Shown here piece after piece: positions 2,949-61,659 of a DNA stretch of 64,000 nucleotides. Origin of the DNA: a virus; the IMG/VR virus record IMGVR_UViG_3300037088_000232. One strand, 5' to 3'. The notes beneath the pieces were generated by a model. It saw only the letters and a program-made list of their open reading frames with translations, searched no databases and was not told the DNA's origin. Made by a program: the position numbers and the translations under genes. Position 1 is the stretch's first letter. Each line of letters begins with the position of its first letter.

Positions 2949-4268
2949 ATGTTGTATTCATTCTCAGAATTTTTGAATGAAAGATATGGTCAATTCAATG
3001 ATTCGATAAAATTTACTGATTGGTCAGAATTTAAGGAAAAGTTAAAAAATTCCATAAAAACTGGTTTTAATACTGAAGAAGAACTCGTTAATTTGATGGG
3101 AATGGACTTTAATAAATATACTCAAATCAGAGAGAATATGATTCTTAATTGGAAGGATTCAGTTAGTAAATCTTTATTACATACTGTCGCTCAGATAGGA
3201 CAAAAAATTCCAAAGGAGGGAGCTAGCATTTTTAAAGATCTCAGACAACAAACAGCTATGTTAATTGTTGCCTCTGGTGGATTAGAAAGTAGAAATGTGT
3301 TTGGTGATGTGAATTCTACAAATGGACTTAGATTTTTAAATAGATTTACGGATCTTGAAAAAATTAAAAATACAAACCCTAAAAGTACTAAATATGATTT
3401 TGATCTCCACAAGGATGTCGTGAAAAGATGGGTTGATTTTGATGGTATTCCAGCCTATACGATAACAAATAATTTATCAATTAAGAAAGTTAATAACATA
3501 GTTCAATATGTTTGGTTATATTCCTTCTATCACCATTATAAAATAAAAAAAGATAAACCGAAACTTCCAAAGAATTTATATAGGGGAATAAGGGTATTCC
3601 AAGGATTAAAAGGTAAAGAAATTGAACAATTAAGAAAAGTATCACAAGAACAAGCTAAAGGGATTGATGATAAACATACTACTTGGGTCAAAACTTTCAT
3701 TGATAATTTGATTCAATTTATCGTTGAGAAAGGAATGTCAAAAATATCGGATGGAAAATTCTTATCTTTTACCGAATCAAGGGATATAGCTGCTTATTTC
3801 GCAAATAAAGAGGGTATTATTTTGAGAGTTGATCCGACTAAGGTAAAAATAGTCACTTCACCAAAGACAGAAGAATTTTTTGGAGAAGTAGATTATGTTT
3901 CTGGTAAAAAAGAAAAAGAATATATCATAGAAATTCCAGTAAATTACAAATTTACCATAGATGATATAGAAATTGTGGATGGCGATTATTGGATCGGAGC
4001 AAATAGTCCATTATCGGTTCAATTCTTCGATCATGATGATAAAAAGGCCAACTATGAATTAGATGGAATAAGAATAGAATCTCAGTATGTTTGGAGAAGT
4101 AATACAAGTGGTGGAATCGTATTTAATAATTTAGATTCGAAAGGATATGAAAGTTGGGGAATATCGAGGCGTGAATTTAAGAAGAAATTCAATGTAGATC
4201 CTATGCCAACCGAAGAAAATTTAAATAGAATAAAAGATTTTAAGATATCTAATACTAAAAGATGGTAA
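2949..4268 (+). CDS. CTS-tagged ADP-ribosyltransferase, R-S-E type (T4 Alt-like)
   Basis: Start chosen at internal ATG giving N-terminus MLYSFSEFLNE (T4 CTS-like). Upstream part of listed ORF 2559-4268 is antisense of two minus-strand ORFs. Motifs LYRGIRV (Arg), FLSFTES (S-x-S), EKEYIIEIP (E-x-E + hydrophobics) with Alt-like spacing. Confidence 0.55.
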   Translation: MLYSFSEFLNERYGQFNDSIKFTDWSEFKEKLKNSIKTGFNTEEELVNLMGMDFNKYTQIRENMILNWKDSVSKSLLHTVAQIGQKIPKEGASIFKDLRQQTAMLIVASGGLESRNVFGDVNSTNGLRFLNRFTDLEKIKNTNPKSTKYDFDLHKDVVKRWVDFDGIPAYTITNNLSIKKVNNIVQYVWLYSFYHHYKIKKDKPKLPKNLYRGIRVFQGLKGKEIEQLRKVSQEQAKGIDDKHTTWVKTFIDNLIQFIVEKGMSKISDGKFLSFTESRDIAAYFANKEGIILRVDPTKVKIVTSPKTEEFFGEVDYVSGKKEKEYIIEIPVNYKFTIDDIEIVDGDYWIGANSPLSVQFFDHDDKKANYELDGIRIESQYVWRSNTSGGIVFNNLDSKGYESWGISRREFKKKFNVDPMPTEENLNRIKDFKISNTKRW

Positions 4269-4618
4269 ATTCTATGAAATATCTAAAAATGTTTGAAGAA
4301 TATAAAAATTTAAATCCTAATTTTTATAAATGGTTTGATGAAAGTAAAGTCGTAGATGAAAATAATCATCCATTAATTGCTTATCACGGAACAGGTGAAT
4401 ATTATAAATCAACTATTGATAAAATATTTGATTGTAGTAAAGGGTGTTGGTTTACTGAATCATTAAAGGTTGCTAAAGTTTTTACACACAATAAATTAAA
4501 TCCGAAAATTTTAAAAGTTTATTTGAAAATAGAAAATCCAAAGATTTATGAAACTTGGTTTGATTATATGAATGATGTTAAGGAATGGAAGAGTGAGATA
4601 ATTAATATAAAGAATTAG
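4262..4618 (+). CDS. small ART-fold-like protein (H-G-T / WFTES motifs), possibly truncated
   Basis: IAYHGTGEYY ... CWFTESLKVA; 118 aa; stop/start overlap with upstream gene. Confidence 0.35.
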   Translation: MVNSMKYLKMFEEYKNLNPNFYKWFDESKVVDENNHPLIAYHGTGEYYKSTIDKIFDCSKGCWFTESLKVAKVFTHNKLNPKILKVYLKIENPKIYETWFDYMNDVKEWKSEIINIKN

Positions 4619-4703
4619 AAAAGATTTTATTATGTTTTACCCGAATTATATTAAGAATATTAAAAATGATGGAAGTTGGGATATAGATGATTCTAATATT
4701 TAT

Positions 4704-5438
4704 TCATAACAAATGATAATAATCCATATTATAAAATTCTTCATCATTTTCAATTCCTATGAAATTTCTTCCTGTATTCTTAGCTGCTATACAGGTTGTT
4801 CCAATACCACAAGTGTTATCCAGTACTAATTCTCCGGGATTCGTAAAGGTCAATATTAACCATTCACACAATTTTACTGGTTTTTGGGTTCTATGTACAG
4901 GTGGCCAAGGTTTTTCGAAGTTTAAAACACTTTTCGGATATTTTTGTGTAGTTCCTTTTCTTATATCTGGAATTTTCGAATCAAAATAACCATAATTTTG
5001 ATTTTTTCCTTCTTTGAAAGAAAAAGCGTTACCTTTTGAATGCTGAGGTGTCCCCTCTGTAAATTGTGGATGGTAAGTTGGTTGTTTTTTATAGAAAATC
5101 AAAATTTGCTCATGGTTTCTAAGTATTTGTTTTTTTGCATTTAAAAATCCAGTGACCCTTTCTCCTTTTTTCCATATCAAATCATAACGATACATTTTCT
5201 CATTAGATAAAGCAAGTTTGTGAGCGAACATTCCCTGAGCGAATAAAGCAATACATCCATTCGGTTTTATAATTCGATTGTAGTTCTTCCAGAGTAATTC
5301 AAATGGGATCATAATATCTTTCTTGTTTCTTGTGACTCCGTATGGTAAATCAGCAAGAATCATATCAACAATATGAGTATCAATATCAGGCATTAGATGT
5401 AAACAATTATCGAAATATATTTTATTTATATCAATCAT
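4704..5438 (-). CDS. DNA N6-adenine/N4-cytosine methyltransferase, beta class
   Basis: Motif IV DLPYG precedes motif I DNTCGIGTT (FxGxG) near C-terminus; 244 aa. Confidence 0.8.
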   Translation of the reverse strand: MIDINKIYFDNCLHLMPDIDTHIVDMILADLPYGVTRNKKDIMIPFELLWKNYNRIIKPNGCIALFAQGMFAHKLALSNEKMYRYDLIWKKGERVTGFLNAKKQILRNHEQILIFYKKQPTYHPQFTEGTPQHSKGNAFSFKEGKNQNYGYFDSKIPDIRKGTTQKYPKSVLNFEKPWPPVHRTQKPVKLCEWLILTFTNPGELVLDNTCGIGTTCIAAKNTGRNFIGIENDEEFYNMDYYHLL

Positions 5439-5829
5439 TTAACAACGATTTTAATTTTTGAGATCTAATGAAATTTTGTATTTTTTCTGATATTTCATGA
5501 CCCGAATAACAATGAGATACGAATCCATCTGGTCTATTCATAAAGTCAGTTGTAATTATATAACAAGAATTATACATTTCAGTACCAGCTGCACTTTTTG
5601 TTCCAATTCCGATTATTGTTTCCCCGAATTTTGGTTTTCTATAATTAAATTTCCATGAATCCCAATTCATTTCTTCACAATATTTTTTATTTTCTTGAGA
5701 TAAAAATTCCAAAATTCCATCAATATCTTTTTCATTGGTTTCAAATAAATTACACCAAATATGATTTTTAATATCTGGTTCAACCGATTTCCCAATCAAA
5801 AATTTATCTAAAAAATTCATATCAATCAT
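5431..5829 (-). CDS. member of tandem paralog family (C-terminal KL..IL.D motif)
   Basis: N-term MIDMNFLDKFLIGKSVE, C-term SQKLKSLLND; overlaps neighbours by 8 nt. Confidence 0.5.
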   Translation of the reverse strand: MIDMNFLDKFLIGKSVEPDIKNHIWCNLFETNEKDIDGILEFLSQENKKYCEEMNWDSWKFNYRKPKFGETIIGIGTKSAAGTEMYNSCYIITTDFMNRPDGFVSHCYSGHEISEKIQNFIRSQKLKSLLND

Positions 5830-6193
5830 TTAATATTTTTTCTAATTTTTTGTATCTAATATGATTTTGTAGTTTTGCAACTAAATCAATTCCACGAAAA
5901 ACACGAGTTGCTAATCCACTAACATTAATATTTTCCAGATTAAACTCAGTTGTAAATAATTCACAAGAATGTTCGTGCCATAGTCTAATTCCTAAAATCG
6001 TTTCTCCGAATAGTGGTTTATAAGGTGGTGGGATATAGTCAAAATCCATTTCACGAGAATATCTTTGATTCTCTTCATTTAAAAATTCTAAGGTTTCATC
6101 ATCAATCTCAATAATATCATTTCTAATATTATTAACATCCTGAATCATAGATTCAGATTTTCCGATCAAAAATTTATCCAGGAAATCCATCAT
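5822..6193 (-). CDS. member of tandem paralog family
   Basis: N-term MMDFLDKFLIGKSE, C-term RYKKLEKILND; paralog of 5431-5829. Confidence 0.5.
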   Translation of the reverse strand: MMDFLDKFLIGKSESMIQDVNNIRNDIIEIDDETLEFLNEENQRYSREMDFDYIPPPYKPLFGETILGIRLWHEHSCELFTTEFNLENINVSGLATRVFRGIDLVAKLQNHIRYKKLEKILND

Positions 6194-6509
6194 TCAAAAT
6201 ATCATTGAGTTTTTCAGATCTTATGTAATTTATTAATCTGGCTTCTAATATATCTGTGTCATTTCCAAAAAACACTTTAAATGTATTATTTTGTCTTGAA
6301 TTATATAAATCCACGAATTCTGATAAATAATTATAATTATATTCGGATTTTCCAGTTATAATAGTTATTTTATTCTTGGATATTCCTTTCTTAAATAAAT
6401 TATCTAAAAAACTTAAACCTGTCTCAATAGATTCGGATTTTCTTTTATCCAATTCAAAATCATGATATTCTTTCCAGAAATTATCCCAATTAAATTCATT
6501 TTCATTCAT
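6174..6509 (-). CDS. member of tandem paralog family
   Basis: N-term NEFNWDNFW, C-term RSEKLNDILNDGFPG. Confidence 0.5.
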   Translation of the reverse strand: MNENEFNWDNFWKEYHDFELDKRKSESIETGLSFLDNLFKKGISKNKITIITGKSEYNYNYLSEFVDLYNSRQNNTFKVFFGNDTDILEARLINYIRSEKLNDILNDGFPG

Positions 6510-7525: not shown

Positions 7526-8410
7526 TTATATATTAAATATTTTCTTGAATGGTTTTAAATTTCCATCTGGATTGTGTTCTTTATATGAGTTATGATCATC
7601 ATAGATAGCGAATACTATCTTATGAAAAACCCCTTTATATTCAGTATCTAATAATTCTTTAAAGATTGAAGCTATCTGTTCGGGTGGATTTCCATAAGCA
7701 CCACAACCAAAAGCGGAAAGAACTAAATCTCTATGTCCATTCTCATGAGCGAATTGAAAAATCCTTCTTATTTTTTGTTTGGTTTTGGAGAAGTCATTTT
7801 CATTCATTCTTCTATTCTTCAATTCTGGTCTTTTTATTGCAGGTACAGATATAAAAGCACATTTGAATGGATGGGAGAGTAAATAATATCCATTTTTTTC
7901 AGAACCACGAAAAACGGTTATATCTTTTGAATAGATTGCACCATAATCACCCAATGGATATTTGTATTTAGAATTTTGTTCTATTCCATACTGATGAGCA
8001 TAATCAACATATTGATAAAGAGATTTAAATAAATTGGTTCTTCTGAATAAATTTTCTTCCTGTGCCGATGAACCATTTATTACACCACCACCGGGATTCT
8101 TATAACTGGCCATATTTAAAACTATCGGATTTTCCATCGTTCTTGCTACATCCAAACAATCAGCATCCATGACCAATATTTCAGTTTTAAAGTCATTTAT
8201 CCCCGTTGGGTCATAAATTGGGCCATTTTCAGTAAATAAAGAGTTCTGGCACACTTTCGAGTTGTCAATGATAACTTCTCCATCCGAGAAGTATTTTCCA
8301 TTCTTAACGATTTTAATCGTGTTTTCCCAAACATCAATCAAAAGTTCTTTTCTTCTGTTAAGATTTGAAGTTTTATAGGTTTGTGCCCATTTTATTGCAT
8401 CCCATTCCAT
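7526..8410 (-). CDS. bacterial-type poly(ADP-ribose) glycohydrolase (macrodomain, DUF2263/TIGR02452 family)
   Basis: PARG signature NPGGGVINGSSAQEENLFRR (GGG-x6-8-QEE) and LVLSAFGCGAYGNPPEQIA. Confidence 0.75.
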   Translation of the reverse strand: MEWDAIKWAQTYKTSNLNRRKELLIDVWENTIKIVKNGKYFSDGEVIIDNSKVCQNSLFTENGPIYDPTGINDFKTEILVMDADCLDVARTMENPIVLNMASYKNPGGGVINGSSAQEENLFRRTNLFKSLYQYVDYAHQYGIEQNSKYKYPLGDYGAIYSKDITVFRGSEKNGYYLLSHPFKCAFISVPAIKRPELKNRRMNENDFSKTKQKIRRIFQFAHENGHRDLVLSAFGCGAYGNPPEQIASIFKELLDTEYKGVFHKIVFAIYDDHNSYKEHNPDGNLKPFKKIFNI

Positions 8411-10291: not shown

Positions 10292-10298
10292 AATTATT

Positions 10299-10829: not shown

Positions 10830-10833
10830 AATT

Positions 10834-11418: not shown

Positions 11419-11423
11419 TTATA

Positions 11424-19434: not shown

Positions 19435-20340
19435 TTGATGATAACTACTTTTAATACATTCATATTAGAGAATAATCGTATTGATACTACCACATTATCA
19501 AAAGATGATGTAAAACGAATTATTGAAGAAAACTGTAAAGATTTCGATTATAATGATAAGAAAATTTATCGTGGAATATATCTTGAACAAAACCCATATT
19601 TAATAGATCCCAAAAAATATCATCGCCTTTCCGCAAACGCTGATAATTATTATAATATGATTGTAGATAATTCAATTTTATGGAAAGATTACCCGAAAAG
19701 AAAACACGCTTTGATTGGTACACTTATGTATTATCAAGCCGTACCTTATGGAACTGTTTTTAGAGTAATACCTTTTGATGGTGCCAAATTTGGTGTTGTT
19801 TCACAGGGAGATATGTGGCAATCATTTGATTATTTACAATCCAAAACTGGTATTGATGAATTAAATTATTTCGATATTTTGATTGATGATTTTCATCAAG
19901 CTTTGTTTGATGAAAAGAAACTGAATAATCTTGTTTATAATATATTTGTAAAACAGGTGAAAAAAATAGAAGATGAAATTAAAAAAGATCCTAACGGTTC
20001 ATCGAAGAAAATATCTCAATATTATCGTGGTTCTTATGATGATTATGTTGATTTCGGAAGAACTGGTAAGGAATATTATAAGAAATTCTTTAATTATATA
20101 TCTGACCAAATAGTTACAAAAAATAAATCATTACTGTCTGTTCTTGAAGATTTACTTTCACCAATAAGAAATGGATTTGAAGTTCTCAGTTATAAAGGAC
20201 TTTTGAATAAAAAAGTAAAAACATCTGGAGGTGTTCCTGAAGTATGGACAGATAGTAAATGTATATTAATTCCAGATTCATTGATGTTTGATCTCAATAT
20301 GAGAGATTTAGACATAACCAGTAACGGACTTCGTATTTAA
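19435..20340 (+). CDS. CTS-tagged protein, possible R-type ART (IYRGI motif)
   Basis: N-term MMITTFNTFILEN; KKIYRGIYL similar to 2949-4268 LYRGIRV; other ART motifs unclear. Confidence 0.35.
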   Translation: MMITTFNTFILENNRIDTTTLSKDDVKRIIEENCKDFDYNDKKIYRGIYLEQNPYLIDPKKYHRLSANADNYYNMIVDNSILWKDYPKRKHALIGTLMYYQAVPYGTVFRVIPFDGAKFGVVSQGDMWQSFDYLQSKTGIDELNYFDILIDDFHQALFDEKKLNNLVYNIFVKQVKKIEDEIKKDPNGSSKKISQYYRGSYDDYVDFGRTGKEYYKKFFNYISDQIVTKNKSLLSVLEDLLSPIRNGFEVLSYKGLLNKKVKTSGGVPEVWTDSKCILIPDSLMFDLNMRDLDITSNGLRI

Positions 20341-22453: not shown

Positions 22454-22804
22454 ATGGAAAATTTATTAACTTTCGAAAAATTCATAACAGAAATGGCTGG
22501 GAAAAAAGGTTTCATGGATGTTTATACCAAAAAATATGATCCAAGTAAAAGGGGTTATGGTAATCCCGATAAATGGAAAGATGCTTTTGATATTAGAATG
22601 GATAGGGATGTGGCTAAAGGAATCTTAGCTAACAAAGATCCATATGATGTACTTGGTATTCCAAAAACAGCCAATAAATACGAAATAAAGAGTGCATATA
22701 GAAAGTTAGCTATGGAGTTTCATCCAGACAGGAATCCAAATAAAGATACCACAAAAATTTTCCAAGAAATACAAGCTGCCTACGAAATGTTAAGAGAAGA
22801 TTAA
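22454..22804 (+). CDS. CTS-tagged J-domain (DnaJ-like) protein
   Basis: N-term MENLLTFEKFITE; J domain DPYDVLGIPKTANKYEIKSAYRKLAMEFHPDRNP. Confidence 0.8.
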   Translation: MENLLTFEKFITEMAGKKGFMDVYTKKYDPSKRGYGNPDKWKDAFDIRMDRDVAKGILANKDPYDVLGIPKTANKYEIKSAYRKLAMEFHPDRNPNKDTTKIFQEIQAAYEMLRED

Positions 22805-23187: not shown

Positions 23188-23688
23188 TTATTCCATTTCC
23201 AAAACATTCGATGGAATTAATACATTTTTGTTTATGATAACCCAAGCGATATTATCTCCTTTACCATTCAAATCATCTGGAATTTTAACTACATCATACC
23301 CCTCATTCTTTGCATGTGATACGATAAAATCACATTTATGGGTTTTTGACTGAATATCATATTGAAAAAGTCTACCAGAAGTAATATAATTTTCTAAATC
23401 TGTATCTTCTAATTCATCACCATAAATAATTTCATTTTTCACCATCCAACTATATAAATCATATCCGTCACTTAAATCTAAAATTGAGGCTCCATTTTTT
23501 AATTTAAAGGTTAATATATTATTTCCATAATCTTTGGCTACTGAACGAGAGGTACTGGTGTAAATACCTTTTAATCTCTTATCTGGTTCTATTTCACTCT
23601 CAGTTATATTTTCATTCGTTCCATGATATAAAGTAACTAAAAACAGTTCTGATGATTGTTCCTCGAATATTTTGAATTTCTTAATCAT
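23188..23688 (-). CDS. ART-fold-like protein (H-G-T / S-T-S / E-hydrophobic motifs)
   Basis: LYHGTNE ... IYTSTSRS ... KNEIIYGD; weak CTS-like N-term MIKKFKIFEE. Confidence 0.4.
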   Translation of the reverse strand: MIKKFKIFEEQSSELFLVTLYHGTNENITESEIEPDKRLKGIYTSTSRSVAKDYGNNILTFKLKNGASILDLSDGYDLYSWMVKNEIIYGDELEDTDLENYITSGRLFQYDIQSKTHKCDFIVSHAKNEGYDVVKIPDDLNGKGDNIAWVIINKNVLIPSNVLEME

Positions 23689-24472
23689 TTTTCAAAATTT
23701 TTGTTGTATAAATTGTTGATCCAGATTTAATTTTTTCATATTCTGATTTATCAATGATGAACAATTTTGCTGTTTTTACTATTCTTGAAACTTGAAAATG
23801 TAATCCAACATCAGAAAGATTTGTTTCTCCCATACAAACATCAAATGTACAATCTTTTTGTTCTCTTGAAACATTTAACACATATTGTAAATTCTCTATT
23901 TTCTTATTCCAAAATTCCAATAAACTATCTTTGTTTGAAAATGGTGTTAAATTAAAATGTTCACCCCCACTTGGATTTGTTCTTTTTTGAAGATATATAA
24001 AGAATGTTTTTTTATTTTCTTTACCAATTAACTCGTCTCTTATTCCGATCTCTTTAATATTCGGATCATGGGACAATCCAACTTTTATACCAATATTTAA
24101 TTTGTTTATTCGATTCATTTCAGAACGAAAATACATTCCATGTGAACCCCCATAATCCTTATAAATATTTCTTTGTGCTAATAAAACATGAATCATTTCG
24201 TGGGCCAACACATCTCTTAGTTGTTGTCTTGTAAAACTGAAATTTTTAGATATGCATAATCTGTGAGCGGTCATTGTAATACTATGAGTCGTTCTATTTT
24301 TTAATGCCGTTATGTCAACAAAAGCTTTCGAATTCTTATTTGTGACAAAGACAATTGGAATTTTCTTTATTTCATTGTTAAAACATAATTCATTTACATC
24401 GTCAAATTCATTTTCAACATCATGTTCGAATTGAAAATTTTCATTTAAAAAATCTGTGAAGTCTGTTATCAT
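23681..24472 (-). CDS. CTS-tagged SprT-like zinc metalloprotease
   Basis: N-term MITDFTDFLNE; VLAHEMIHVLLAQ...H HExxH motif. Confidence 0.55.
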   Translation of the reverse strand: MITDFTDFLNENFQFEHDVENEFDDVNELCFNNEIKKIPIVFVTNKNSKAFVDITALKNRTTHSITMTAHRLCISKNFSFTRQQLRDVLAHEMIHVLLAQRNIYKDYGGSHGMYFRSEMNRINKLNIGIKVGLSHDPNIKEIGIRDELIGKENKKTFFIYLQKRTNPSGGEHFNLTPFSNKDSLLEFWNKKIENLQYVLNVSREQKDCTFDVCMGETNLSDVGLHFQVSRIVKTAKLFIIDKSEYEKIKSGSTIYTTKILKND

Positions 24473-28191: not shown

Positions 28192-29013
28192 ATGAGAATA
28201 AAAAATTACAAAGAGTTCATAACGGAAAATGTTGATTCTGATAGATTAGGAACAGAATTAGAGATAGAAGGAATATCTAATAAAGAAATCGATTTGATAA
28301 ATAAATTAAAAAGAATATCTGAAAAATCAAATGTTGAAGGTAGCCACAATATCTTTTTTGAAATCCCAATTGTAGTTGGTAAAAGAAGTGGGAAAGATGT
28401 AATATGTAATTATTTTTATCTTCATGATAATCCATATTGGCATGAAAATTATCTGGTATTTCATGTAATGTATAATGAAAGAAAATATAAAAATCCAAAG
28501 ATATATGATAAAGAATTCGATTTCAGTTTAATGAACTATTTCGATATTAAAAGAGGGGTACATTCTCAAAGACCTTATAAGAAAGGTCAATTCCTGAAAC
28601 CAGTAGCTATGAAATTTCAATTTGATCAGGACTTCTTGGAAAAAATATATGATTCAGCTTCTAAACTGAATATGGAGTGGATAAAAAAATGTGAGGAAGT
28701 TCAAAAAGAAAGTCGTGATTGGAGTAGACTATGTAATCAAGAGAGAAAACCTGAAATTAGTTGGGAAAGACAATTATATCATACGAAATGTCAGATTTTT
28801 TATCATAAAATATTAAATGTACAAGAAGATTTAACAGACATTAGACGATTAGAAGAAATGGAAAAAGATGGTGAAAAAGTTTACACTGAAAAAATGAGAA
28901 AAGAAAATGATTATATGAAAGGTATTCTGGATGATATATTAAAAGATCCTGATTCCAATCTGTCCAAATTAATAAAGAAAGATAAAGAAAAGAAAAGAAA
29001 TATTAATTTATGA
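28192..29013 (+). CDS. CTS-tagged hypothetical protein
   Basis: N-term MRIKNYKEFITEN; 273 aa. Confidence 0.45.
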   Translation: MRIKNYKEFITENVDSDRLGTELEIEGISNKEIDLINKLKRISEKSNVEGSHNIFFEIPIVVGKRSGKDVICNYFYLHDNPYWHENYLVFHVMYNERKYKNPKIYDKEFDFSLMNYFDIKRGVHSQRPYKKGQFLKPVAMKFQFDQDFLEKIYDSASKLNMEWIKKCEEVQKESRDWSRLCNQERKPEISWERQLYHTKCQIFYHKILNVQEDLTDIRRLEEMEKDGEKVYTEKMRKENDYMKGILDDILKDPDSNLSKLIKKDKEKKRNINL

Positions 29014-36978: not shown

Positions 36979-37176
36979 GTGTTTATGGATAAATTTTCAG
37001 ATTTACTCAAGGAAAATTCCGAATGGTTGGGTCATAAGGAATTAAAAAAAATCCAAAAACTTCCACAAAGACAGGATTCACTATCTGAACAAATGCAAGA
37101 TTTATATCATGTAGCCAATCATTTTGGATTATATGACGCGGCTGATTACATCCGTAAAAATTTCATTGAAAAATAA
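36979..37176 (+). CDS. small protein, weak CTS-like N-terminus
   Basis: MFMDKFSDLLKEN. Confidence 0.35.
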   Translation: MFMDKFSDLLKENSEWLGHKELKKIQKLPQRQDSLSEQMQDLYHVANHFGLYDAADYIRKNFIEK

Positions 37177-37188
37177 AGGATAATTATT

Positions 37189-37437
37189 ATGAAAAGATTT
37201 ACTCAATTTGTAAAAGAAGAAAAAGAGTACAGAGCAAAAGCCAGAACTGATAGATTTCATTTCGGAACTGAAATAACTGGTGTTGAAGTGGAACTCATTT
37301 CTGATTTGTATGGTAGTGAGGTTTCTGATACTGAAGTAAGAGTGGTAAGTGAGGGAACAATTTGTGTAATAGCTGGTGATACCATAGAACAATTTAAGAA
37401 AGAATTACAAGATGTAATTGATAAATACAAAATATGA
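37189..37437 (+). CDS. CTS-tagged small protein
   Basis: MKRFTQFVKEE; first of four overlapping CTS genes. Confidence 0.4.
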   Translation: MKRFTQFVKEEKEYRAKARTDRFHFGTEITGVEVELISDLYGSEVSDTEVRVVSEGTICVIAGDTIEQFKKELQDVIDKYKI

Positions 37438-38027
37438 AAACATTTACTGAATTTTTATTGGAAGCTAAGGGGGGTAAGAAAGTAATAGCTTATCACTTAT
37501 CTAACCAATTGGAACATATGTTAAAAGCTGATTTCAAAATGGACCATAGTAGTGATATTTCCATATTTGGTCGTGCCATTTATTTTTCCAGCAGTCCAGA
37601 TATAAGATTTTATCCGATGAGGGGAGGTAAAAAAATATATACTTGTAAATTTGAAATAACATTGGAAGAACCTTTATTGGACATGAATCGTGAGATACCA
37701 GTATTTGAAGCGAACCGTCTTTTAAATGATTTTCGTATCATATTAGAGAATAAGAATCCAACATATTTGAGAGAATTACAGAATTATAATTTTGAAAGTG
37801 AATTTAAAGATACTATTCAGATGGGAGAATTTTTTGATACCATATACACTCGTCATGTAGAATCAAGTAAGTATTTCGATTATTTCATACATAATTATTT
37901 GAAATACAATTCATTTCAATATTTTCAAAATTCTTTAACAGATTATATAACTGAAAAAGAGGATTATGGCATATCATATGGAGTATATGATAAAAAGAAT
38001 ATAAAATTCATAGATGGACCATTTTAA
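37434..38027 (+). CDS. CTS-tagged ART-fold-like protein (H / S-S-S / E motifs)
   Basis: MKTFTEFLLEA (7 of 11 identical to T4 CTS); VIAYHLSN ... IYFSSSPD ... KFEITL. Confidence 0.4.
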   Translation: MKTFTEFLLEAKGGKKVIAYHLSNQLEHMLKADFKMDHSSDISIFGRAIYFSSSPDIRFYPMRGGKKIYTCKFEITLEEPLLDMNREIPVFEANRLLNDFRIILENKNPTYLRELQNYNFESEFKDTIQMGEFFDTIYTRHVESSKYFDYFIHNYLKYNSFQYFQNSLTDYITEKEDYGISYGVYDKKNIKFIDGPF

Positions 38028-38454
38028 AACATTTAAAGACTTTTTACTTGAATCTACCAACATAAAAACCAAAGAAGAATTATTTGGTAAAAAAATGTAT
38101 CATGGTACTACCTTAGAAACTTGGAGAGAATTGGAGAAAAGTTATTTATTTGTAACAGATGAAGAAGAACATGCTCAATATCACGCTATAAGTCGAACAG
38201 AGGGAATGATACATAATGGGGATAAGGAATACGATAAATTAACGGCTGTCGTGTTTGAAATTGTGATAGATGAAGAAATATTAAATTTAGAATGGGTAGT
38301 TGATGATGATGATGGGAACAGATCATTTTTTGAAACATGGTTAGATTCTTACAATGCAGTAGGAACATTTGTAATTATGGGAATTGATTCAAGTAAATTT
38401 AAAGAAGTATTCAAAGAAAAAATAACAAAAGAAACATCAATAAGATATTTATGA
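38014..38454 (+). CDS. CTS-tagged ART-fold-like protein (H-G-T)
   Basis: MDHFKTFKDFLLES; KMYHGTTLETW ... LFVTDEE ... VVFEIVI. Confidence 0.4.
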   Translation: MDHFKTFKDFLLESTNIKTKEELFGKKMYHGTTLETWRELEKSYLFVTDEEEHAQYHAISRTEGMIHNGDKEYDKLTAVVFEIVIDEEILNLEWVVDDDDGNRSFFETWLDSYNAVGTFVIMGIDSSKFKEVFKEKITKETSIRYL

Positions 38455-39350
38455 AAAATTTTAGAACATATGATGAATTTCTCTTGGAATTTCAGAAAAA
38501 AGATGTTTCGTTGTTAGAGACTTTGGATGACTATTTTACCATCGGATTTGAAATTGAAATGGACACTGACCATAGAAGAATTAGAAGTCTACCTACTCCC
38601 CCAAAAATAATAACCAATGAATCGAAGAAATTAAATGTATTATCGATTCAGGATAGAAGAAAAGTGATGGATATCAAAAATAATTTTCCAAATTTCTTCC
38701 GAAAATATTTCGATATTTTGGAATATCATTATGAAGGGACAGTTTCATCTGGAATGGAATTTGTAACTCCACCATTTCATAGCTTACAAGAATCTAAAGA
38801 ATTCATTAAAATATTTTTCGAAGATTTTGAAAAACAAAATAAATGGTTTTTTAATGATAAAACAAGTATTCATATTAATATCGGTACAAAAAAACCGAAA
38901 TCAAGATGGAATGTTGTTAAAGGTGTTATGATGTTATCGGATGATTATACATTTAAAAACATTGAAGCTCGAAAAACCTGTGGATATTGTAGTAGTTTAA
39001 AGACTGAGATTTTTATGATGATAATAAACAATGATAAAAATTATCAAAAGACATCTAATAATAGAAATATAACTGACATGAATAAGAATCAAATAGAGAA
39101 CCTTATTGAACAAATTATTCAAAAAATATTTACATCCACTCAAAAAACTTATAATATTAATTTTTGGAAATTATTCAATAAAAACTATGTAGAATTTCGT
39201 CAAGTTGGTGGAGAAAATATAAATGAAAATATTGTAATTAATAAAATGATGTATTTTGTTTATTGTGTTTATTTAATGACCAGTTCATATAAGAAAGATG
39301 AATATATTAGAAAATTATTCAGCTTCGTAGAAAAAATTAGAAAATTTTAG
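38451..39350 (+). CDS. CTS-tagged glutamine-synthetase-like amidoligase (Amidoligase_2-like)
   Basis: MKNFRTYDEFLLE; GFEIEMDTD, SGMEFVTPPF, TSIHINIG motifs. Confidence 0.5.
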   Translation: MKNFRTYDEFLLEFQKKDVSLLETLDDYFTIGFEIEMDTDHRRIRSLPTPPKIITNESKKLNVLSIQDRRKVMDIKNNFPNFFRKYFDILEYHYEGTVSSGMEFVTPPFHSLQESKEFIKIFFEDFEKQNKWFFNDKTSIHINIGTKKPKSRWNVVKGVMMLSDDYTFKNIEARKTCGYCSSLKTEIFMMIINNDKNYQKTSNNRNITDMNKNQIENLIEQIIQKIFTSTQKTYNINFWKLFNKNYVEFRQVGGENINENIVINKMMYFVYCVYLMTSSYKKDEYIRKLFSFVEKIRKF

Positions 39351-52302: not shown

Positions 52303-52887
52303 ATGAACAAGTTCATTATGAATTTTGATTCCTTCATTAAAGAAAATAAAAAAACAACTATAGCCGAATTACCAGAAGAAGTGACCAAAAGTGCAAAGAC
52401 CATAGTAGATGGTAATTTTGATCATGCTTTAAAGAAAACTTTTGATGGTGATATGATAAGATTTAAAGTTAATCCCGAAGATTTTAATTATGTTGATCCT
52501 CAACAACATCTTGAACTGGAATTGGGAGAAGGTCCATCAAAGAAAAGAAAATTCGATGTTACTCTAATATTTGTTCAGGCAATTGAAGCTACCGAAAGAG
52601 AAAAAGAAAAAAGTAAAGATTCATCAGGTCATTCTAAAGTCGGTGGAGAACTTATTTACAAAATAGAATTTAAACCAAAGGAATTATCTGATGATGAAAA
52701 TACAGAACATGAACAGGAAGAAGAAGATGATGTTTGGAATAAACCAGATCCAGATGATGAAGATTTAATTCCAGAAGAACCAGAAGAAGAGGGAAAACCC
52801 GTATCATCTGGTAGAAAGAAAGTTCATATTGAAGATTTAAATACTTTTTTCCAAACGAGTGATGGTGACGATGATTCTGAACTTTGA
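52303..52887 (+). CDS. CTS-tagged, highly acidic protein (D/E-rich C-terminal half)
   Basis: MNKFIMNFDSFIKEN; EHEQEEEDDVWNKPDPDDEDLIPEEPEEEG. Confidence 0.45.
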   Translation: MNKFIMNFDSFIKENKKTTIAELPEEVTKSAKTIVDGNFDHALKKTFDGDMIRFKVNPEDFNYVDPQQHLELELGEGPSKKRKFDVTLIFVQAIEATEREKEKSKDSSGHSKVGGELIYKIEFKPKELSDDENTEHEQEEEDDVWNKPDPDDEDLIPEEPEEEGKPVSSGRKKVHIEDLNTFFQTSDGDDDSEL

Positions 52888-55275: not shown

Positions 55276-55812
55276 TTATTTGGCTTTATTTTTTACCAAA
55301 GAAACTAAATTTTCCAAAGAATCAGATATATCACTTTTCTCACCGTCAGTAGTTTTTTTCCAATCAACTTCACGAATAGTTTTTGTTATATTTCTGATTT
55401 GTTCTCTTATGAATTGGAGTTTCCTATATGTCTGAGTATCAGATTCATTTAATAAATTCTCTTTCATTTCTGGTAATTTATCTGGTAAATCGTATTGAAT
55501 AATAAGAATTTTACGTTTTTCATCAGCAAGATCTGATTTTATTTCATATGAATAATCCCAATCTACTATTAACATGAGTGCATTCTTTTCAGTAATTGGA
55601 ATCAAATTACTTTTTTTATATGGTTTAACAGAATAACCTTTAAGAAGTGCGGCATATTCACCACTACAATAATCTAATGGAATACTAATTTCTTGTTTTG
55701 TTTTATTATTGAAAATGATATAAAAAGCTTTGCATTTGGATATTTCCAACAATTTGTCAACATCTTTAACAAGATCTAATTTTTCATTAAATTTTTTGAA
55801 TCTTATAATCAT
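55276..55812 (-). CDS. hypothetical protein (weak CTS-like N-term MIIRFKKFNE)
   Basis: 178 aa. Confidence 0.4.
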   Translation of the reverse strand: MIIRFKKFNEKLDLVKDVDKLLEISKCKAFYIIFNNKTKQEISIPLDYCSGEYAALLKGYSVKPYKKSNLIPITEKNALMLIVDWDYSYEIKSDLADEKRKILIIQYDLPDKLPEMKENLLNESDTQTYRKLQFIREQIRNITKTIREVDWKKTTDGEKSDISDSLENLVSLVKNKAK

Positions 55813-57654: not shown

Positions 57655-58202
57655 ACTTTTAATACTTTTATTTGTTCTGATTTAAAGATAATCCAATCAA
57701 ATCTTTTAATGTCTGGTGATTCTATTTCATTTATATACTTAATACAATCATATCCTTGATTCATTAGGTGGTTTTTATATTCCAATGAAATTTCTTTTGC
57801 TTTTCCATCTGTTAAATTAAATAATTGATTCATTAAACAATTCTTTGTTCCAAAATATGGTAAATCAAATATGTTTTTTGATGGAAAAATTGATAAATCG
57901 ATTATCTTTTTTTCAAGTCCAAACTTCAACATTTCTTTGACTAAATTACCCTCTTTTATTTTCAAGAATTTGTTATATTTCAATTCTATTTCGTAGATAA
58001 TATAATCAGGTGGATTTGTAAATCTTTCAGCAACAGTATCATTTTCAGTAAAATGAATCCCAAGAAAACTTAATAAATGACCATCTTGACCCAATCTATT
58101 AAAGTCAAAGATATCAAATTTACGGCCAGAACCATGAAATAATGGATGTTCATATATTTTAGATTCATTAATGAAACTATTATAAGACAACAGGTTTATC
58201 AC
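57618..58202 (-). CDS. CTS-tagged ART-fold-like protein, H-G-S paralog B
   Basis: MINLLSYNSFINE; HPLFHGSG ... FLGIHFTEND ... YIIYEIELK; clear paralog of 57034-57654. Confidence 0.45.
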   Translation of the reverse strand: MINLLSYNSFINESKIYEHPLFHGSGRKFDIFDFNRLGQDGHLLSFLGIHFTENDTVAERFTNPPDYIIYEIELKYNKFLKIKEGNLVKEMLKFGLEKKIIDLSIFPSKNIFDLPYFGTKNCLMNQLFNLTDGKAKEISLEYKNHLMNQGYDCIKYINEIESPDIKRFDWIIFKSEQIKVLKVWDLKPRLEIKW

Positions 58203-58911
58203 TATTCTTGGATTTTATTTTTATGTAGAAAGAAACATCATCCTCGGAATCATCAATGTATGCTTCTATCTTTTTACCCCAAGGATATTTATTACACCAT
58301 TCAACAAAAGTATTAGTTAGATCATCGGAATTTTTCATATTATCTTTTAATAATTCTTTTGAAATGACTTTTCTGAGTCTCATAGTTGTTAAGATGATTA
58401 TTCCTTTACTGGTCTTATCTTCAAAGAAATATTTTAGATCTTTTTTGATTTCATGTAATAAAGTTAATGTTTTAGTGGATGCTATTCTCAGTACCCCACT
58501 TATCATAGCTAAACAACTATATGATTTTATTTGTCTCAATTCATTGTCTTTTATATTTAATTGTCCAGTTTTATAAATAACATCTTTTAGATCATTATAA
58601 AAACCATATTCTAAAATACCATTCCTGATACCGAAATAAAAAGATAATTTCTCATTACTGATTTTACCATATGTTCTGAATGTATTCTTAACAGAATCTT
58701 TAAATTCAAATCCATCTAATACATCTATTGGTTTTTTTATCCACTCGGTTCTAAAAAAATAAAGGAAGTTTCCAGTATTCAAATAATTTCCAGATTTAAT
58801 AAATGAAAATTTCATTTCATCTAATGTGTGTAAAAACATATAGAATCCGTAACGACCATCTACGGGTGATCCCTGATTTTCCTTTATATATGTTAAAAAA
58901 TCCTTTATCAT
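58180..58911 (-). CDS. CTS-tagged hypothetical protein
   Basis: MIKDFLTYIKEN; 243 aa. Confidence 0.4.
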   Translation of the reverse strand: MIKDFLTYIKENQGSPVDGRYGFYMFLHTLDEMKFSFIKSGNYLNTGNFLYFFRTEWIKKPIDVLDGFEFKDSVKNTFRTYGKISNEKLSFYFGIRNGILEYGFYNDLKDVIYKTGQLNIKDNELRQIKSYSCLAMISGVLRIASTKTLTLLHEIKKDLKYFFEDKTSKGIIILTTMRLRKVISKELLKDNMKNSDDLTNTFVEWCNKYPWGKKIEAYIDDSEDDVSFYIKIKSKNSDKPVVL

Positions 58912-59398: not shown

Positions 59399-60955
59399 TT
59401 ATATATTTTTATCAACTACCCATAAGTATTTAGCTGGTATGCTCTTTCCTTGTATGTAACAATTACCTGTAAATAAACTCATTTGGTCTTTATATAATAT
59501 ACCTAAATTCAAATCATCTGTATTTATACCCACAATCGCATATGGTTCTTTATCTGTTTTATCTATCTGCTTCCATACTTTTAATTCCTTTATTAATGAA
59601 TATAAAACCTCTTTGTTCGTAGACATATAGATTCTCGGTGGGTACTTGTGTCGAATATCTTCCGACTTGGATTTTAAACCATGTTTCAAAATATCATTTA
59701 ATCTGGACATTGGACAAGCATGATATAATGTATCTGGAATTAATACATACCCCTTACTCCACTTCGGAGAAATACTTAATGTATGTGTGTTCTTAATCCT
59801 TGTCATTGATGCCCTTGAATACCAACCAAATTTGTTTATGTATTTCAATAACTTGTCAATAAACTCTTTATCATCTAAATCTTCATACCACTTGTAAATA
59901 TCTTCATATTTATCATGACCTTTATAAATACCCCATATCGTTATGGATTCACCACTTATACCTTCTGGTCTGTCAATGTTAATTTCAGGAAACCTTTTTA
60001 TTAACTTGTTATACATAGTCTGACCATCTATCGATTCATTATTCTTCTCTAATAATACAAATTCAAATTCTCCAAAATTGATTATCATTCTATGATGATT
60101 TTCATAAATATTTTTACTCTTTCCATTGAAAGTTGTGTTTTCACCAGTTGCTATTTTTATTCGTTTAGGATTTGTTACCACATATTCATCAGCGAACTGT
60201 GCTCCAGTGTCCGCATTCCTGATTATTTTACAATGAATACTACTATCTGGAACTCGATTTAAACCCACACCTACATTCTCCCCATCTTCTTCCTCAATAA
60301 TTGTCGCTTTTATAAAGCATGGATATATGTAACCCTCTTGATTGTCGTATTTACTTTGAATTTCTTCCAATTCCTTATTCAATTCAATATCGTATTTTTT
60401 ATCCAAGTGTACAAATTCACTTAGTTTTGGACTGATTTCATCTATGTTCTTCTTACCTATCCAAAACAATAAATCCATCAATGTCTTTGATACTTCTTTC
60501 CAATTATCTGATTTCACCCAACTACTTAAATTATAATAACCAGTAGACTTACCATACTCCTTTTCTATGAAAGATAACATTCCATCCCATACCGACATAT
60601 CTACCGTCTTTAAAAATTCAATCTTGTCTTTTTCTATTTTCTCGTTATATTTCTCGTTAACCTCATTCCTTTCATTGTAATACGATCTTGGATAACATTG
60701 TGAATAATGTGTTGCAACATTCAGGTTTGAAAACCAAAAAGCATATTCAGCACCCATCTGACCAGAAGTATCATTCATACCATATTTGAATTCTGTGAAT
60801 TTATAAGGGCTTCCATGATAAACTACCAATGGTTTACCATTTTTATCCACTATTTTACTGGTCTTTTTATTCGGATGTTCCCAATCACCAAACCAATCCT
60901 TAAACTCTTTGGAATGAATGATTTTCTCATATGTTTCTTTGTCTAACTTCATCAC
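59399..60955 (-). CDS. hypothetical protein with N-terminal H-G-S segment
   Basis: 518 aa; LVVYHGSPYKFTEF near N-terminus. Confidence 0.4.
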   Translation of the reverse strand: MMKLDKETYEKIIHSKEFKDWFGDWEHPNKKTSKIVDKNGKPLVVYHGSPYKFTEFKYGMNDTSGQMGAEYAFWFSNLNVATHYSQCYPRSYYNERNEVNEKYNEKIEKDKIEFLKTVDMSVWDGMLSFIEKEYGKSTGYYNLSSWVKSDNWKEVSKTLMDLLFWIGKKNIDEISPKLSEFVHLDKKYDIELNKELEEIQSKYDNQEGYIYPCFIKATIIEEEDGENVGVGLNRVPDSSIHCKIIRNADTGAQFADEYVVTNPKRIKIATGENTTFNGKSKNIYENHHRMIINFGEFEFVLLEKNNESIDGQTMYNKLIKRFPEINIDRPEGISGESITIWGIYKGHDKYEDIYKWYEDLDDKEFIDKLLKYINKFGWYSRASMTRIKNTHTLSISPKWSKGYVLIPDTLYHACPMSRLNDILKHGLKSKSEDIRHKYPPRIYMSTNKEVLYSLIKELKVWKQIDKTDKEPYAIVGINTDDLNLGILYKDQMSLFTGNCYIQGKSIPAKYLWVVDKNI

Positions 60956-61125
60956 TTTCTATATATAAAAATAAAAAGATAAAATGAACAACGATCAGAT
61001 TAAATCAAAAATAATGAAAAGAGTTTTGGAATTAACAGAGGAATTAAAAAATCATATTCATTCAGTGAATATCGAATTCAGTCCAGACGATAAGAAAATA
61101 ATTGTGGATTTTAATATATAAATCT

Positions 61126-61659
61126 ATGATTGTAAATTTTAAAGTATTTGAGGGAATGAAAGAATCAATACCAGATGAATTAGCCATCTGGTTTATGGAT
61201 TTCTTTGCACAACAAACTATAAAGTTTATTGAAGATGTAAACAAAATACCTTCAAATTTGTTTCAGGAAAGTTATAACTTAGTTAAAGAAATGACAAAAA
61301 ATACTTTAGTTTATAGGGGAGAATCAAGAGATTATGAAATAACGAAACCAATTAGATTTTCACCTAAGAACAACGCTGGTATATCTTGGTCATACGAAAA
61401 GGAAATTGCCATGGGTTTTATTGAACCAGATTCGGAAGATATGTTTTCTTACTTATATACCTTAGACTTAAAAGATGTTAAATATCCAGTATCTTTGGAT
61501 TTGGTTATGGATAAAATAACTGAAAGACAAAAAAAATTAATAACAAATCCAATAACCAGATCACAAATCTCTGGATGGTCTGAATATAATTCAGAAAAAG
61601 AAATATTAGTGTTTGATACTTTTTATTCAGATATATTGAAAATAGAGGTTATATCTTAA
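61126..61659 (+). CDS. ADP-ribosyltransferase, R-S-E type (second Alt-like)
   Basis: Start at ATG 61126 (listed ORF uses TTG 61102); LVYRGES, GISWSYEKE, EKEILVFD with Alt-like spacing. Confidence 0.5.
   Translation: MIVNFKVFEGMKESIPDELAIWFMDFFAQQTIKFIEDVNKIPSNLFQESYNLVKEMTKNTLVYRGESRDYEITKPIRFSPKNNAGISWSYEKEIAMGFIEPDSEDMFSYLYTLDLKDVKYPVSLDLVMDKITERQKKLITNPITRSQISGWSEYNSEKEILVFDTFYSDILKIEVIS

Follow-up and report, generated by a model that had tools for sequence, protein, structure and literature searches.

In bacteriophage T4, the tag MKTYQEFIAE directs internal proteins into the prohead, with residues 4 and 7 serving targeting and residues 8 and 10 serving processing by gp21, which cleaves after L/I-x-E. 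T4 has three such internal proteins, which are small and basic, and it also has the ADP-ribosyltransferase (ART) Alt, a member of the R-S-E clade whose short N-terminal propeptide is removed by the prohead protease and which is delivered with the DNA. In phiKZ, 201phi2-1 and SPN3US, many head-internal proteins are processed after Glu by a diverged gp21-like protease, and the propeptides are thought to direct proteins to the prohead. Polyvalent proteins, which combine 2–15 domains in one giant polypeptide, include ART-PolyVal domains and zincin/SprT-like peptidases and are predicted to accompany the invading DNA (Iyer et al. 2017, PMC5512222); virion packaging and injection were predicted there for ART-PolyVal domains specifically.

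The locus described here is a stretch of 64,000 nucleotides (the window), part of a 597-kb contig of a Mahaphage-clade huge phage and not of a classical T4-like phage; unlike T4, these phages have genomes of 0.6–0.74 Mb and probably a Bacteroidota host. As in the T4 internal proteins, a predicted 10-residue N-terminal propeptide with aromatic residues at 4 and 7, I/L at 8 and E at 10, ending in the gp21 motif, sits on otherwise unrelated, fast-evolving proteins, and gp20-, gp21- and gp23-type head genes are present in the genome. Unlike T4, the window holds about 20 tagged genes, and a relative about 50, in two coexisting tag dialects; the cargo (60–440 aa) includes recognizable enzymes, and the protease is fused to a scaffold of tandem tag-like repeats. 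The likeness to Alt lies in an ART with a short predicted propeptide, but the verifiable ARTs belong to the ART-PolyVal (H-Y-D) clade and similarity to Alt was not detected. Domains and predicted role are shared with the polyvalent proteins, whereas the proteins here are separate and small, with one tag each. The tags (10–14 residues, I/L/V-x-E) also differ from the propeptides of the phiKZ group, which usually exceed 100 residues with S/A-x-E, for which no common consensus is reported in the literature, and which are processed by a protease of a different family (S80) with no known scaffold homologue.

Tag definition and enrichment in the window

The strict tag core was defined as [FY]-x-x-[FYL]-[ILV]-x-E and scored in the first 17 residues of the 112 genes of a simple gene call, in which several starts follow the longest-ATG rule. 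It was found at the N-terminus of 15 genes against 0.43 expected from internal sites (6 in 17,049 positions), a 35-fold enrichment; when the pooled residues of the N-termini were shuffled 2000 times, the mean was 0.6 cores and the maximum 5. Among internal Met positions, 5 of 324 carried the core. The full form reads M-x(1-5)-[FY]-x-x-[FY]-[ILV]-x-E, with a consensus of K at P9, T/K at P8, F/Y at P7, E as the commonest residue at P5, F/Y at P4, I/L at P3 and E at P1. The T4 tag, to which the initial annotation had compared these N-termini, agrees wherever a position is constrained, residues 4, 7, 8 and 10 among them. Conservation is by amino-acid class (F/Y, I/L/V, invariant E) and not by nucleotide identity.

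A type-2 tag (F-x-[ILVM]-F-E or M-K-[HY]-[LI]-K-x-F-E) is carried by at least six more genes (Table 1) and has no occurrence at internal positions of the window proteins; two or three further genes are ambiguous (52862, 55276, 61649). Strict and type-2 tags together give about 20–21 tagged genes, where at least 17 had been claimed, and all 14 N-termini quoted at that time lie at real ORF starts. A frequent occurrence on bulk proteins, which would have spoken against a head signal, was not seen, with none of the approximately 19 Pfam-annotated replication/metabolism genes in the window tagged. Public gene calls concur with the tagged-gene starts, including the ATG at which the 2949 gene begins within a longer ORF. 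The tag at 362–520, one of the 15, is doubtful because its start must be an internal Met. The genome is AT-rich, and Shine-Dalgarno sites were seen in 7 of the 112 genes.

Table 1. Tagged and possibly tagged genes of the window; a slash separates the tag from the residue that follows it.
Position	Strand	Class	Tag	Length	Product and remarks
362..520	+	strict core, doubtful	MDTFELLLPE (Met at 380)		possible small tagged protein
2949..4268	+	strict	MLYSFSEFLNE/R	439 aa	YRG/SFT/ExE motifs hint at ART; no match in Pfam and PHROG searches
4274..4618	+	type-2	MKYLKMFEE		ART-PolyVal, Pfam 36.5 bits; shortened in window, 165 aa on public contigs
19438..20340	+	strict	MITTFNTFILE/N	300 aa	phrog_12810 (E 2.8e-29), PHROG without assigned function
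22454..22804	+	strict	MENLLTFEKFITE/M	116 aa	J-domain protein; Pfam DnaJ E 7.9e-20, residues 62–115
23188..23688	-	type-2	MIKKFKIFEE	166 aa	ART-PolyVal-like, Pfam 28.2 bits (below 31.2 cut-off)
23681..24472	-	strict	MITDFTDFLNE/N	263 aa	SprT-like zinc protease; Pfam SprT-like 33.5 bits, residues 23–130
28192..29013	+	strict	MRIKNYKEFITE/N	273 aa	no function assigned (Pfam, PHROG)
36985..37176	+	strict	MDKFSDLLKE/N	63 aa	heads operon of five tagged genes
37189..37437	+	strict	MKRFTQFVKE/E	82 aa	acidic
37434..38027	+	strict	MKTFTEFLLE/A	197 aa	tag nearest to T4 MKTYQEFIAE; identical protein on public contigs
38014..38454	+	strict	MDHFKTFKDFLLE/S	146 aa	YHGT motif
38451..39350	+	strict	MKNFRTYDEFLLE/F	299 aa	glutamine-synthetase-fold (amidoligase-like) enzyme
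52303..52887	+	strict	MNKFIMNFDSFIKE/N	194 aa	acidic protein, pI 4.5; tagged homologue in LR756501
52862..53284	+	ambiguous	MVTMILNFDDYLSINE	140 aa	neither regular expression fits
55276..55812	-	ambiguous	MIIRFKKFNE	178 aa
55809..56552	-	strict	MKNILTYNEFINE/D	247 aa
56553..57017	-	type-2	MKHIKEFE	154 aa	same dialect seen in another phage lineage
57034..57624	-	type-2	MVTKFYIFEK	196 aa	ART-PolyVal, Pfam 41.2 bits
57618..58202	-	strict	MINLLSYNSFINE/S	194 aa	GTG start; ART-PolyVal, Pfam 31.0 bits (cut-off 31.2)
58180..58911	-	strict	MIKDFLTYIKE/N	243 aa
58923..59387	-	type-2	MITKFKMFEY (internal Met)		DUF6576 protein
61126..61659	+	type-2	MIVNFKVFEG	177 aa

Conservation in a relative and in homologues

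The tag is also enriched in the 735-kb relative LR756501, in which 51 of 1012 genes carry it against 3.8 expected. Orthologue pairs between the window and this genome retain the tag while its sequence is altered, as in the orthologue of 58180..58911 (44% identity), which begins MRSYYEYIKE/N. Paralogues occur both tagged and untagged, and the C-terminal half of 55809..56552 matches an untagged LR756501 protein of 136 aa. Turnover of the repertoire is fast, with LR756501 homologues found for 9 of the 24 window proteins checked, and some tagged proteins of this genome resemble metabolic enzymes, namely a DeoC aldolase and a radical SAM enzyme. In the glutamine-synthetase (GS)-fold family, 35 of 36 proteins (query included) are tagged, 17 with strict and 18 with type-2 tags, the one exception being a distant Amidoligase_2 member, and orthologues with identity as low as about 30% still have the tag. 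It is likewise present in each of the five SprT-like homologues whose N-terminus is intact. The type-2 dialect appears at the same N-terminal position in more distant orthologues and probably serves the same purpose as the strict tag, though it often misfits L/I-x-E (e.g., MKHIKEFE, MKYLKMFEE and the tags of locus L039). A promoter-like sequence, TTAATATATA, upstream of tagged operons was considered as a sign of co-regulation with head genes and was rejected, as it is a general motif in LR756501.

The head module and its scaffold repeats

The same contig encodes, 5–12 kb upstream of the window, a gp20-type portal (Portal_T4), an 818-aa protein (P0001) and a Gp23 capsid protein. The T4-type prohead protease that the initial annotation expected elsewhere in the genome is present between portal and capsid genes, 9.6 kb upstream, with its catalytic His and Ser conserved. 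Judged from its sequence, P0001 is a gp21-type serine prohead protease fused to a long helical scaffold. The N-terminal domain of its family aligns with T4 gp21 (hhalign probability 94.5%, E 7.8e-8), placing GEFDHP on T4 His85 and VSSR on T4 Ser140, and both are invariant in 22 homologues. Single-sequence evidence is fainter, with no precomputed Pfam match for P0001, a phmmer E-value of 0.42 against PDB 5JBL, an AF2 model of low confidence (mean pLDDT 53.6) and 22.9 bits against Peptidase_S77 for the LR756501 homologue, below the 27-bit cut-off. Head genes follow the T4 order in LR756501 (Portal_T4 1e-69, Peptidase_S77 6.7e-5, Gp23 1.8e-25).

The scaffold part of P0001 contains 11 tandem repeats (residues 332–485) with an exact period of 14, I-x-Y-x-x-Y-[IV]-A-E-x-x-D-x-x, which share the core motif of the tag. 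The T4-type cleavage motif [ILV]-x-E closes the core of each repeat and is 3.3 times as dense here as in the proteome on average. When a PSSM built from the scaffold repeats only was run over the LR756501 proteome, 13 of the top 50 matches were N-terminal against 1.7 expected. Tag and repeat differ at P2 (N/K/L/T in tags, A in the scaffold) and in the placing of the upstream hydrophobic residue (P10 in tags, P9 in repeats). Since similarity to T4 gp22, gp67 or gp68 was not detected, calling the scaffold T4-type is an analogy only. LR756501 encodes additional proteins with scaffold-type repeats.

These features suggest how loading could work. The tag would be a short amphipathic helix resembling a single scaffold repeat and, by motif identity and T4 genetics, would dock its cargo onto the scaffold array during assembly of the prohead core. 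After assembly the protease would cleave after Glu, destroying the scaffold and freeing mature cargo in the head, and the cargo would leave with the DNA and act ahead of phage gene expression, as suggested by T4 internal proteins, Alt and the polyvalent-protein literature.

Cargo and competing explanations

Without their first 16 residues, the tagged proteins show no BLAST-detectable paralogy except for the pair 57034/57618; their Pfam families differ, and every domain begins downstream of the tag. The diverse enzyme cargo proposed initially holds for the SprT-like, J-domain, GS-fold and acidic proteins, but the R-S-E ART assignment of the 2949 and 61126 proteins finds no Pfam or PHROG support. 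The proposed H-G-[ST] ART-fold paralogs are ART-PolyVal domains, of which several score close to or under the Pfam cut-off (31.2 bits); another ART-PolyVal protein of the window (59399–60952) is untagged. For 38451..39350, the AF2 model (mean pLDDT 86.9) matches glutamine synthetases in Foldseek (E about 1e-6) and places tag residues 1–11 in a separate helix (pLDDT <50) ahead of the confident fold. Its homologue P0126 joins a tag, a YHGT-motif region (unverified as ART) and a GS-like domain in a single protein, a fusion which suggests that polyvalent and single-domain formats can interconvert.

From sequence and analogy, we consider it likely that the tags are T4-type propeptides, each imitating a single scaffold repeat, that direct proteins to the prohead core and can be cleaved off, and that the cargo is packaged and ejected. 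An unlikely alternative is that the tags target and are cleaved in the prohead core as proposed, with a cargo that is mainly structural or assembly material, such as filler of the core or "inner body", factors that determine size or proteins that are broken down and expelled as the scaffold is, and not injected effectors. T4 gp67, gp68 and gp22 are core proteins cleaved at the same motif, a giant capsid may require internal filler, many of the tagged proteins are short and lack a recognizable enzyme domain, and the extra repeat proteins of LR756501 would fit such a role. Yet ART-PolyVal, SprT-like, J-domain and GS-fold ligase proteins are typical host-manipulation enzymes, the fast turnover of the repertoire suits conflict genes better, and ejection is what happens to the precedents, Alt and the internal proteins of T4.

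That the motif is a signal unrelated to the capsid, whether a degron or regulated-proteolysis tag, a signal for another compartment or the membrane, or an RNA-level "downstream box", appears quite improbable. The tag is too short and too polar for a signal peptide, conservation by amino-acid class argues against an RNA-level element, and neither the 11–12-fold repetition of the motif in the protease-scaffold protein, the position-by-position match to the experimentally defined T4 tag nor its absence from Pfam-assigned replication/metabolism genes would be expected, even though capsid localization is itself inferred, the type-2 dialect breaks the T4 cleavage rule and unusual initiation signals are conceivable given the AT-rich genome and rare Shine-Dalgarno sites. 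A further alternative takes the similarity as artefactual, arising from composition, from wrongly called starts or from a recently duplicated exon-like N-terminal segment. AT-richness does favor K, N, I, F, Y and E, the longest-ATG rule underlies several starts, and 362–520 and some type-2 tags require internal Met starts. This reading is nevertheless effectively refuted by the enrichment over all shuffles, its replication in the independent LR756501 genome and the conservation in the GS-fold family, together with the public gene calls; the tags vary between genes in sequence and length and are therefore not recent copies.

The capsid-targeting interpretation of the initial annotation is thus supported, with packaging, cleavage and injection as its predictions, and the tag-motif scaffold repeats, the orthologue conservation and the 51 tagged genes of LR756501 add support that was not available to it. 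The predicted cargo of the window would comprise ADP-ribosyltransferases, an SprT-like protease, a J-domain protein, a GS-fold ligase and many small uncharacterized proteins. Because about twenty unrelated small enzymes begin with a T4-like head-loading tag, this phage, with its genome of roughly 600 kb, probably packages many proteins for manipulating its host and probably also injects them.

Occurrence and cargo of the N-terminal tag

The initial annotation described an expanded set of window ORFs whose N-termini resemble the T4 capsid-targeting sequence, and all 14 of the N-termini it quoted were located at ORF starts. MINLLSYNSFINE starts at GTG, and MLYSFSEFLNE starts at an ATG that lies inside a longer ORF and is also the start in public gene calls. 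The window has a GC content of 29% and no tRNAs were found in it. In a simple non-overlapping call of 112 genes, 15 had the strict core [FY]..[FYL][ILV].E among their first 17 residues, against 0.43 expected. Among window proteins the same core occupies 6 of 17,049 internal positions and follows only 5 of 324 internal Met residues, and when the pooled N-terminal residues were shuffled 2000 times the count averaged 0.6 with a maximum of 5. A second pattern (type 2), F-x-[ILVM]-F-E or M-K-[HY]-[LI]-K-x-F-E, begins six more window genes and is absent from internal positions of the window proteins. The tagged set is thus confirmed, with 15 strict and six type-2 genes.

In T4, the first 10 residues of internal protein IPIII (MKTYQEFIAE) suffice for packaging, residues 4 and 7 determining targeting and residues 8 and 10 determining processing by the prohead protease gp21, which cuts after L/I-x-E (PMC9026906). 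Across the 15 window proteins and 51 proteins of the 735-kb relative LR756501, P7 is F/Y, P4 is F/Y/L, P3 is I/L/V and P1 is E, giving the consensus M-[IV]-K-[KNT]-[FY]-x-x-[FY]-[IL]-x-E, which meets each of the IPIII determinant positions (4 and 7 aromatic, 8 I/L, 10 E); the tag of gene 37434, MKTFTEFLLE, is nearly the T4 sequence itself. Strict tags end at residue 10-16 in all cases, in the manner of a short propeptide at the extreme N-terminus. Many type-2 tags deviate from the L/I-x-E rule. The tag is portable and is found on mutually unrelated proteins: once the first 16 residues are removed, tagged proteins share no BLAST similarity, one pair excepted.

The Pfam domains found on tagged proteins are listed in the table below and begin downstream of the tag in every identified case, with at most one recognised domain per tagged window protein. 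Of the ART-PolyVal matches in the window, three exceeded the cut-off (41.2, 39.3 and 36.5 bits), one was at it (31.0 bits) and one fell below it (28.2 bits). A relaxed Pfam search (E <= 5) of the tagged proteins returned nothing useful, and PHROGs matched a single family among them, of unknown function. The AF2 model of 38451 is confident (pLDDT 86.9), with residues 1-11 forming a detached helix (pLDDT <50). The annotation of this protein as a GS-like amidoligase is supported, since Foldseek matches of its body are to glutamine synthetases (E about 1e-6) and Pfam Amidoligase_2 is found on one distant homologue. YRG, S-x-S and E-x-E motifs seen in 2949-4268 and 61126-61659 are suggestive of an R-S-E ART; no Pfam or PHROG match to an R-S-E (Alt/VIP2) ART domain was obtained for either ORF, even at E <= 5.

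Features in and upstream of the window. Tagged genes are given by their start coordinate.
Feature	Position	Strand	Basis or remark
J-domain protein, tagged	22454		Pfam
SprT-like zinc protease, tagged	23681		Pfam
ART-PolyVal ADP-ribosyltransferase domains, tagged	4274, 57034, 57618; 23188 (below cut-off)		Pfam
DUF6576 protein, tagged	58923		Pfam
ART-PolyVal protein, untagged	59399-60952		
PARG, microbial-type, untagged	7526-8410	-	
NMNAT-MazG fusion	29363-30262	+	
CDF (cation-efflux) transporter, split in two ORFs	31763-32140, 32178-32639	+	same split on independent public contigs
Three tandem small ORFs ending ..KL..ILND	5431-5829, 5822-6193, 6174-6509	-	downstream of N6 methylase
SPFH/Band-7 protein, 775 aa	25730-28057	-	membrane-anchored
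Mini capsid protein, 161 aa	50119-50604	+	
Portal, T4 gp20-type, 604 aa	5-12 kb upstream of window start, 597-kb contig		PF07230
P0001, 818 aa	L035 (locus outside the window) 10001-12457, 9.6 kb upstream of window start		protease + scaffold
Major capsid protein, Gp23-family, 609 aa	5-12 kb upstream of window start, 597-kb contig		PF07068
TTAATATATA copies	2922, 19421, 22424, 28155, 36953, 50853, 52273, 61111	+	
TTAATATATA copies	2670, 7527, 14982, 36442, 57047, 58917	-	

None of about 19 Pfam-annotated replication and metabolism genes of the window carries the tag. These include DNA polymerase B, N6 methylase, C39 peptidase, PARG, HAD, DUF1848, UDG, radical SAM, SPFH, NMNAT/MazG, PTH2, the CDF transporter, PPK2, YqeY and dCMP deaminase. 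The microbial-type PARG, the NMNAT-MazG fusion and at least five ART-PolyVal genes make up a dense NAD/ADP-ribose toolkit, in which the untagged PARG might undo modifications made by ARTs that are predicted to be packaged. Among the other window genes, the SPFH/Band-7 protein has four internal repeats of ~75 aa and is most closely related to proteins of huge phages and Vibrio phages. The first two of the tandem small ORFs are BLAST-detectable paralogues (39% identity), and the third shares the common C-terminal motif only, as judged by eye.

Relatives of the window and conservation of the tag

The DNA polymerase fragment in the window shows 67% identity to its counterpart in LR756501/LR756503, the 735-kb 'Mahaphage' genome described by Al-Shayeb et al. 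2020, about 40% to those of 634-642-kb genomes and about 30% to gp43 of T4-like cyanophages. The predicted hosts of these huge phages are Bacteroidetes (PMC7162821), and the scarcity of Shine-Dalgarno-like motifs in the window (7 of 112 genes) agrees with such a host. Identical proteins were found on a 597,284-bp JGI contig and a 736,551-bp contig; a megablast search of phage genomes with 9 kb of window sequence and a tblastn search with the 37434 protein gave no match. The window is otherwise 99.8-100% identical to the public contigs, with two short deletions at ~958 and ~4615. Through a 42-nt deletion the DNA polymerase B gene loses its TTG start and 14 codons, and one of about 60 nt leaves an ART-PolyVal gene with about 115 aa instead of 165 aa; both could be strain variation or assembly error.

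In LR756501, 51 of 1012 genes are tagged against 3.8 expected. Most of these have no Pfam match; among the few with one are methyltransferases, a nucleotidyltransferase, an Ig-domain protein, a radical SAM enzyme and a DeoC aldolase. The tag is kept in orthologue pairs while its sequence changes (MKNFRTYDEFLLE / MITNYTNYINE; MIKDFLTYIKE / MRSYYEYIKE), and paralogues exist both with and without it. For the GS-fold family (38451 as query plus 35 relatives), the strict tag is found on the query, the 15 relatives closest to it and a single more distant protein, and a type-2 tag (MKHLIKFxLFEE) occupies the same position in 18 more distant members, leaving one remote Amidoligase_2 member as the sole untagged protein. 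The tag is also modular: in the GS-fold homologue P0126 a single tag is followed by a YHGT-motif region and the ligase domain in one protein, and in the window the YHGT-motif protein 38014 adjoins the ligase 38451, each separately tagged. SprT-like homologues with an intact N-terminus were tagged in 5 of 5 cases. LR756502 is more distant; a 50-kb sample of it contained a homologue of the protease-scaffold protein and one tagged gene only, and so speaks weakly for generality. In another low-GC phage lineage (L039, a locus outside the window; ENA BUSI22-1 scaffold_256, 35201-56337), 6 of 31 genes start with M-K-[HYF]-[LI]-[KR]-x-[FY]-E, a dialect that corresponds to the second tag type, also present on about six genes of the window genome.

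The promoter-like 10-mer TTAATATATA has 14 copies in the window against 1.5 expected, nine of which precede tagged genes or operons at a distance of 5-45 nt. In LR756501, 135 copies were found, upstream of 20% of tagged and 11% of untagged genes. The argument for a late promoter specific to tagged genes was therefore dropped as evidence, and the 10-mer is uninformative on expression timing because it is a general motif in that genome. Variants also lie ahead of the genes for the portal, the protease-scaffold protein and the capsid protein.

The head module and the protease-scaffold protein

As in T4, a gp20-type portal, a gp23-type capsid protein and a putative gp21-type protease are encoded on the contig that holds the window. 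In LR756501 the three head genes are in T4 order, with Portal_T4 at 1e-69, Gp23 at 1.8e-25 and a sub-threshold Peptidase_S77 match (PF03420, E 6.7e-5). The protease-scaffold protein P0001 belongs to a family of at least 2,531 database proteins of metagenomic origin, many of which have PF03420 recorded. Single-sequence phmmer of its protease domain against PDB reached T4 gp21 at E 0.42 only, and the full-length family profile matched a designed coiled coil alone. The gp21 match emerged only after an alignment of 22 diverse homologues was trimmed to the N-terminal domain (residues 1-205) and compared by hhalign (94.5% probability, E 7.8e-8). The motif GEFDHP lines up with T4 His85 and VSSR with T4 Ser140, corresponding to a catalytic pair of His76 and Ser131 in P0001 that is invariant across the family. 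The initial annotation had proposed looking for a T4-type prohead protease elsewhere in the genome, and its absence would have counted against the capsid-targeting reading; as judged from profile-level similarity, P0001 provides one.

The P0001 chain opens with the protease domain and continues with 11 repeats of 14 aa and a linker that is acidic and rich in Pro and Glu; a small beta domain follows, and a helical domain forms the C-terminus. The repeats (residues 332-485) have an exact 14-residue period, I-x-Y-x-x-Y-[IV]-A-E-x-x-D-x-x, and number 12 in the LR756501 homologue, with which P0001 also shares a conserved PHFL[LE]FL[PS]E element. The repeat core Y-x-x-Y-[IV]-A-E satisfies the strict tag core and can be compared with Y-Q-E-F-I-A-E in T4. 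When a PSSM built from 251 scaffold repeats only was scanned over the whole LR756501 proteome, 13 of the top 50 matches fell at N-termini against 1.7 expected. The repeat region is predicted, at low confidence, to be helical, and [ILV]-x-E sites are 3.3 times as dense in it as in the proteome. With a pLDDT of 53.6, the AF2 model of P0001 was too poor for a fold search. Similarity to the T4 scaffold protein gp22 was not detected, and tblastn of T4 gp22, gp24 and gp68 against LR756501 gave nothing significant. In place of a gp22-type core there is a predicted helical, cleavage-site-rich scaffold with tag-like repeats, fused to the protease.

Three LR756501 genes, starting at 619760, 715658 and 716346, contain 1-3 copies of the 14-aa repeat, and by analogy with T4 gp67 and gp68 their products are possible extra core proteins. 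The mini capsid protein of the window is made of collinear pieces of the phage's own Gp23-family major capsid protein (N-terminal propeptide region, residues 14-100, E 1e-15; 365-411; 561-582); possible roles are those of a decoy, an assembly factor or a vertex factor.

A predicted delivery system and its implications

The most economical reading is that the tags are T4-type capsid-targeting propeptides, as the initial annotation proposed and as the in silico evidence supports. Tagged cargo would dock onto the repeat scaffold, the fused protease would remove the tag, and the cargo would stay in the head for ejection; scaffold binding, cleavage, packaging and injection are inferred, whereas the motif with its enrichment, conservation and modularity, the head module, and the motif common to tags and scaffold repeats are sequence results. 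The system would then be the known T4 tag system, greatly expanded, with tag-like repeats in a protease-scaffold fusion. Many processed ejection proteins are likewise loaded by phiKZ-like giant phages, but with propeptides of over 100 aa that are cleaved at S/A-x-E, whereas the window tags are 10-16 aa long with I/L/V at P3. Delivery of ART-PolyVal domains together with the phage genome has been predicted independently (PMC5512222). The window proteins share part of the domain set of polyvalent proteins, such as ART-PolyVal, but polyvalent proteins combine at least two disparate effector domains per polypeptide (Iyer et al., 2017), unlike the tagged proteins of the window; two regions in one polypeptide are found here only in the homologue P0126. 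Within the literature library searched, no paper links a capsid-targeting sequence to huge phages or megaphages.

It is possible, and we put it tentatively at somewhat less than an even chance, that in huge Mahaphage-clade phages the T4 tag principle has become a general platform for protein delivery, in which the scaffold, fused to the prohead protease, is a rack of 11-12 identical docking repeats. If so, any protein gaining an N-terminal mimic of one repeat would be loaded, trimmed and injected, and ~50 different pre-made enzymes could be delivered per virion as a first-strike arsenal of ARTs, proteases, ligases, methyltransferases and chaperone cofactors. The likeness of tag and repeat leads to a specific and testable model for the recognition of a capsid-targeting tag, which T4 papers such as PMC9026906 do not settle. 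Tag dialects may co-evolve with scaffold repeats, and the tag would be a sequence-only marker of injected effectors across at least 2,500 metagenomic protease-scaffold homologues. The T4 tag is already in use for packaging foreign proteins, and a natural system loading enzymes by the dozen points to a far larger payload and to new design rules. Huge phages carry hundreds of genes without a known role. A ten-residue tag would split this dark matter, from sequence alone, into proteins delivered with the DNA and proteins made after infection, and would flag, in uncultivated Bacteroidota phages, candidates for effectors of anti-defence and host takeover.
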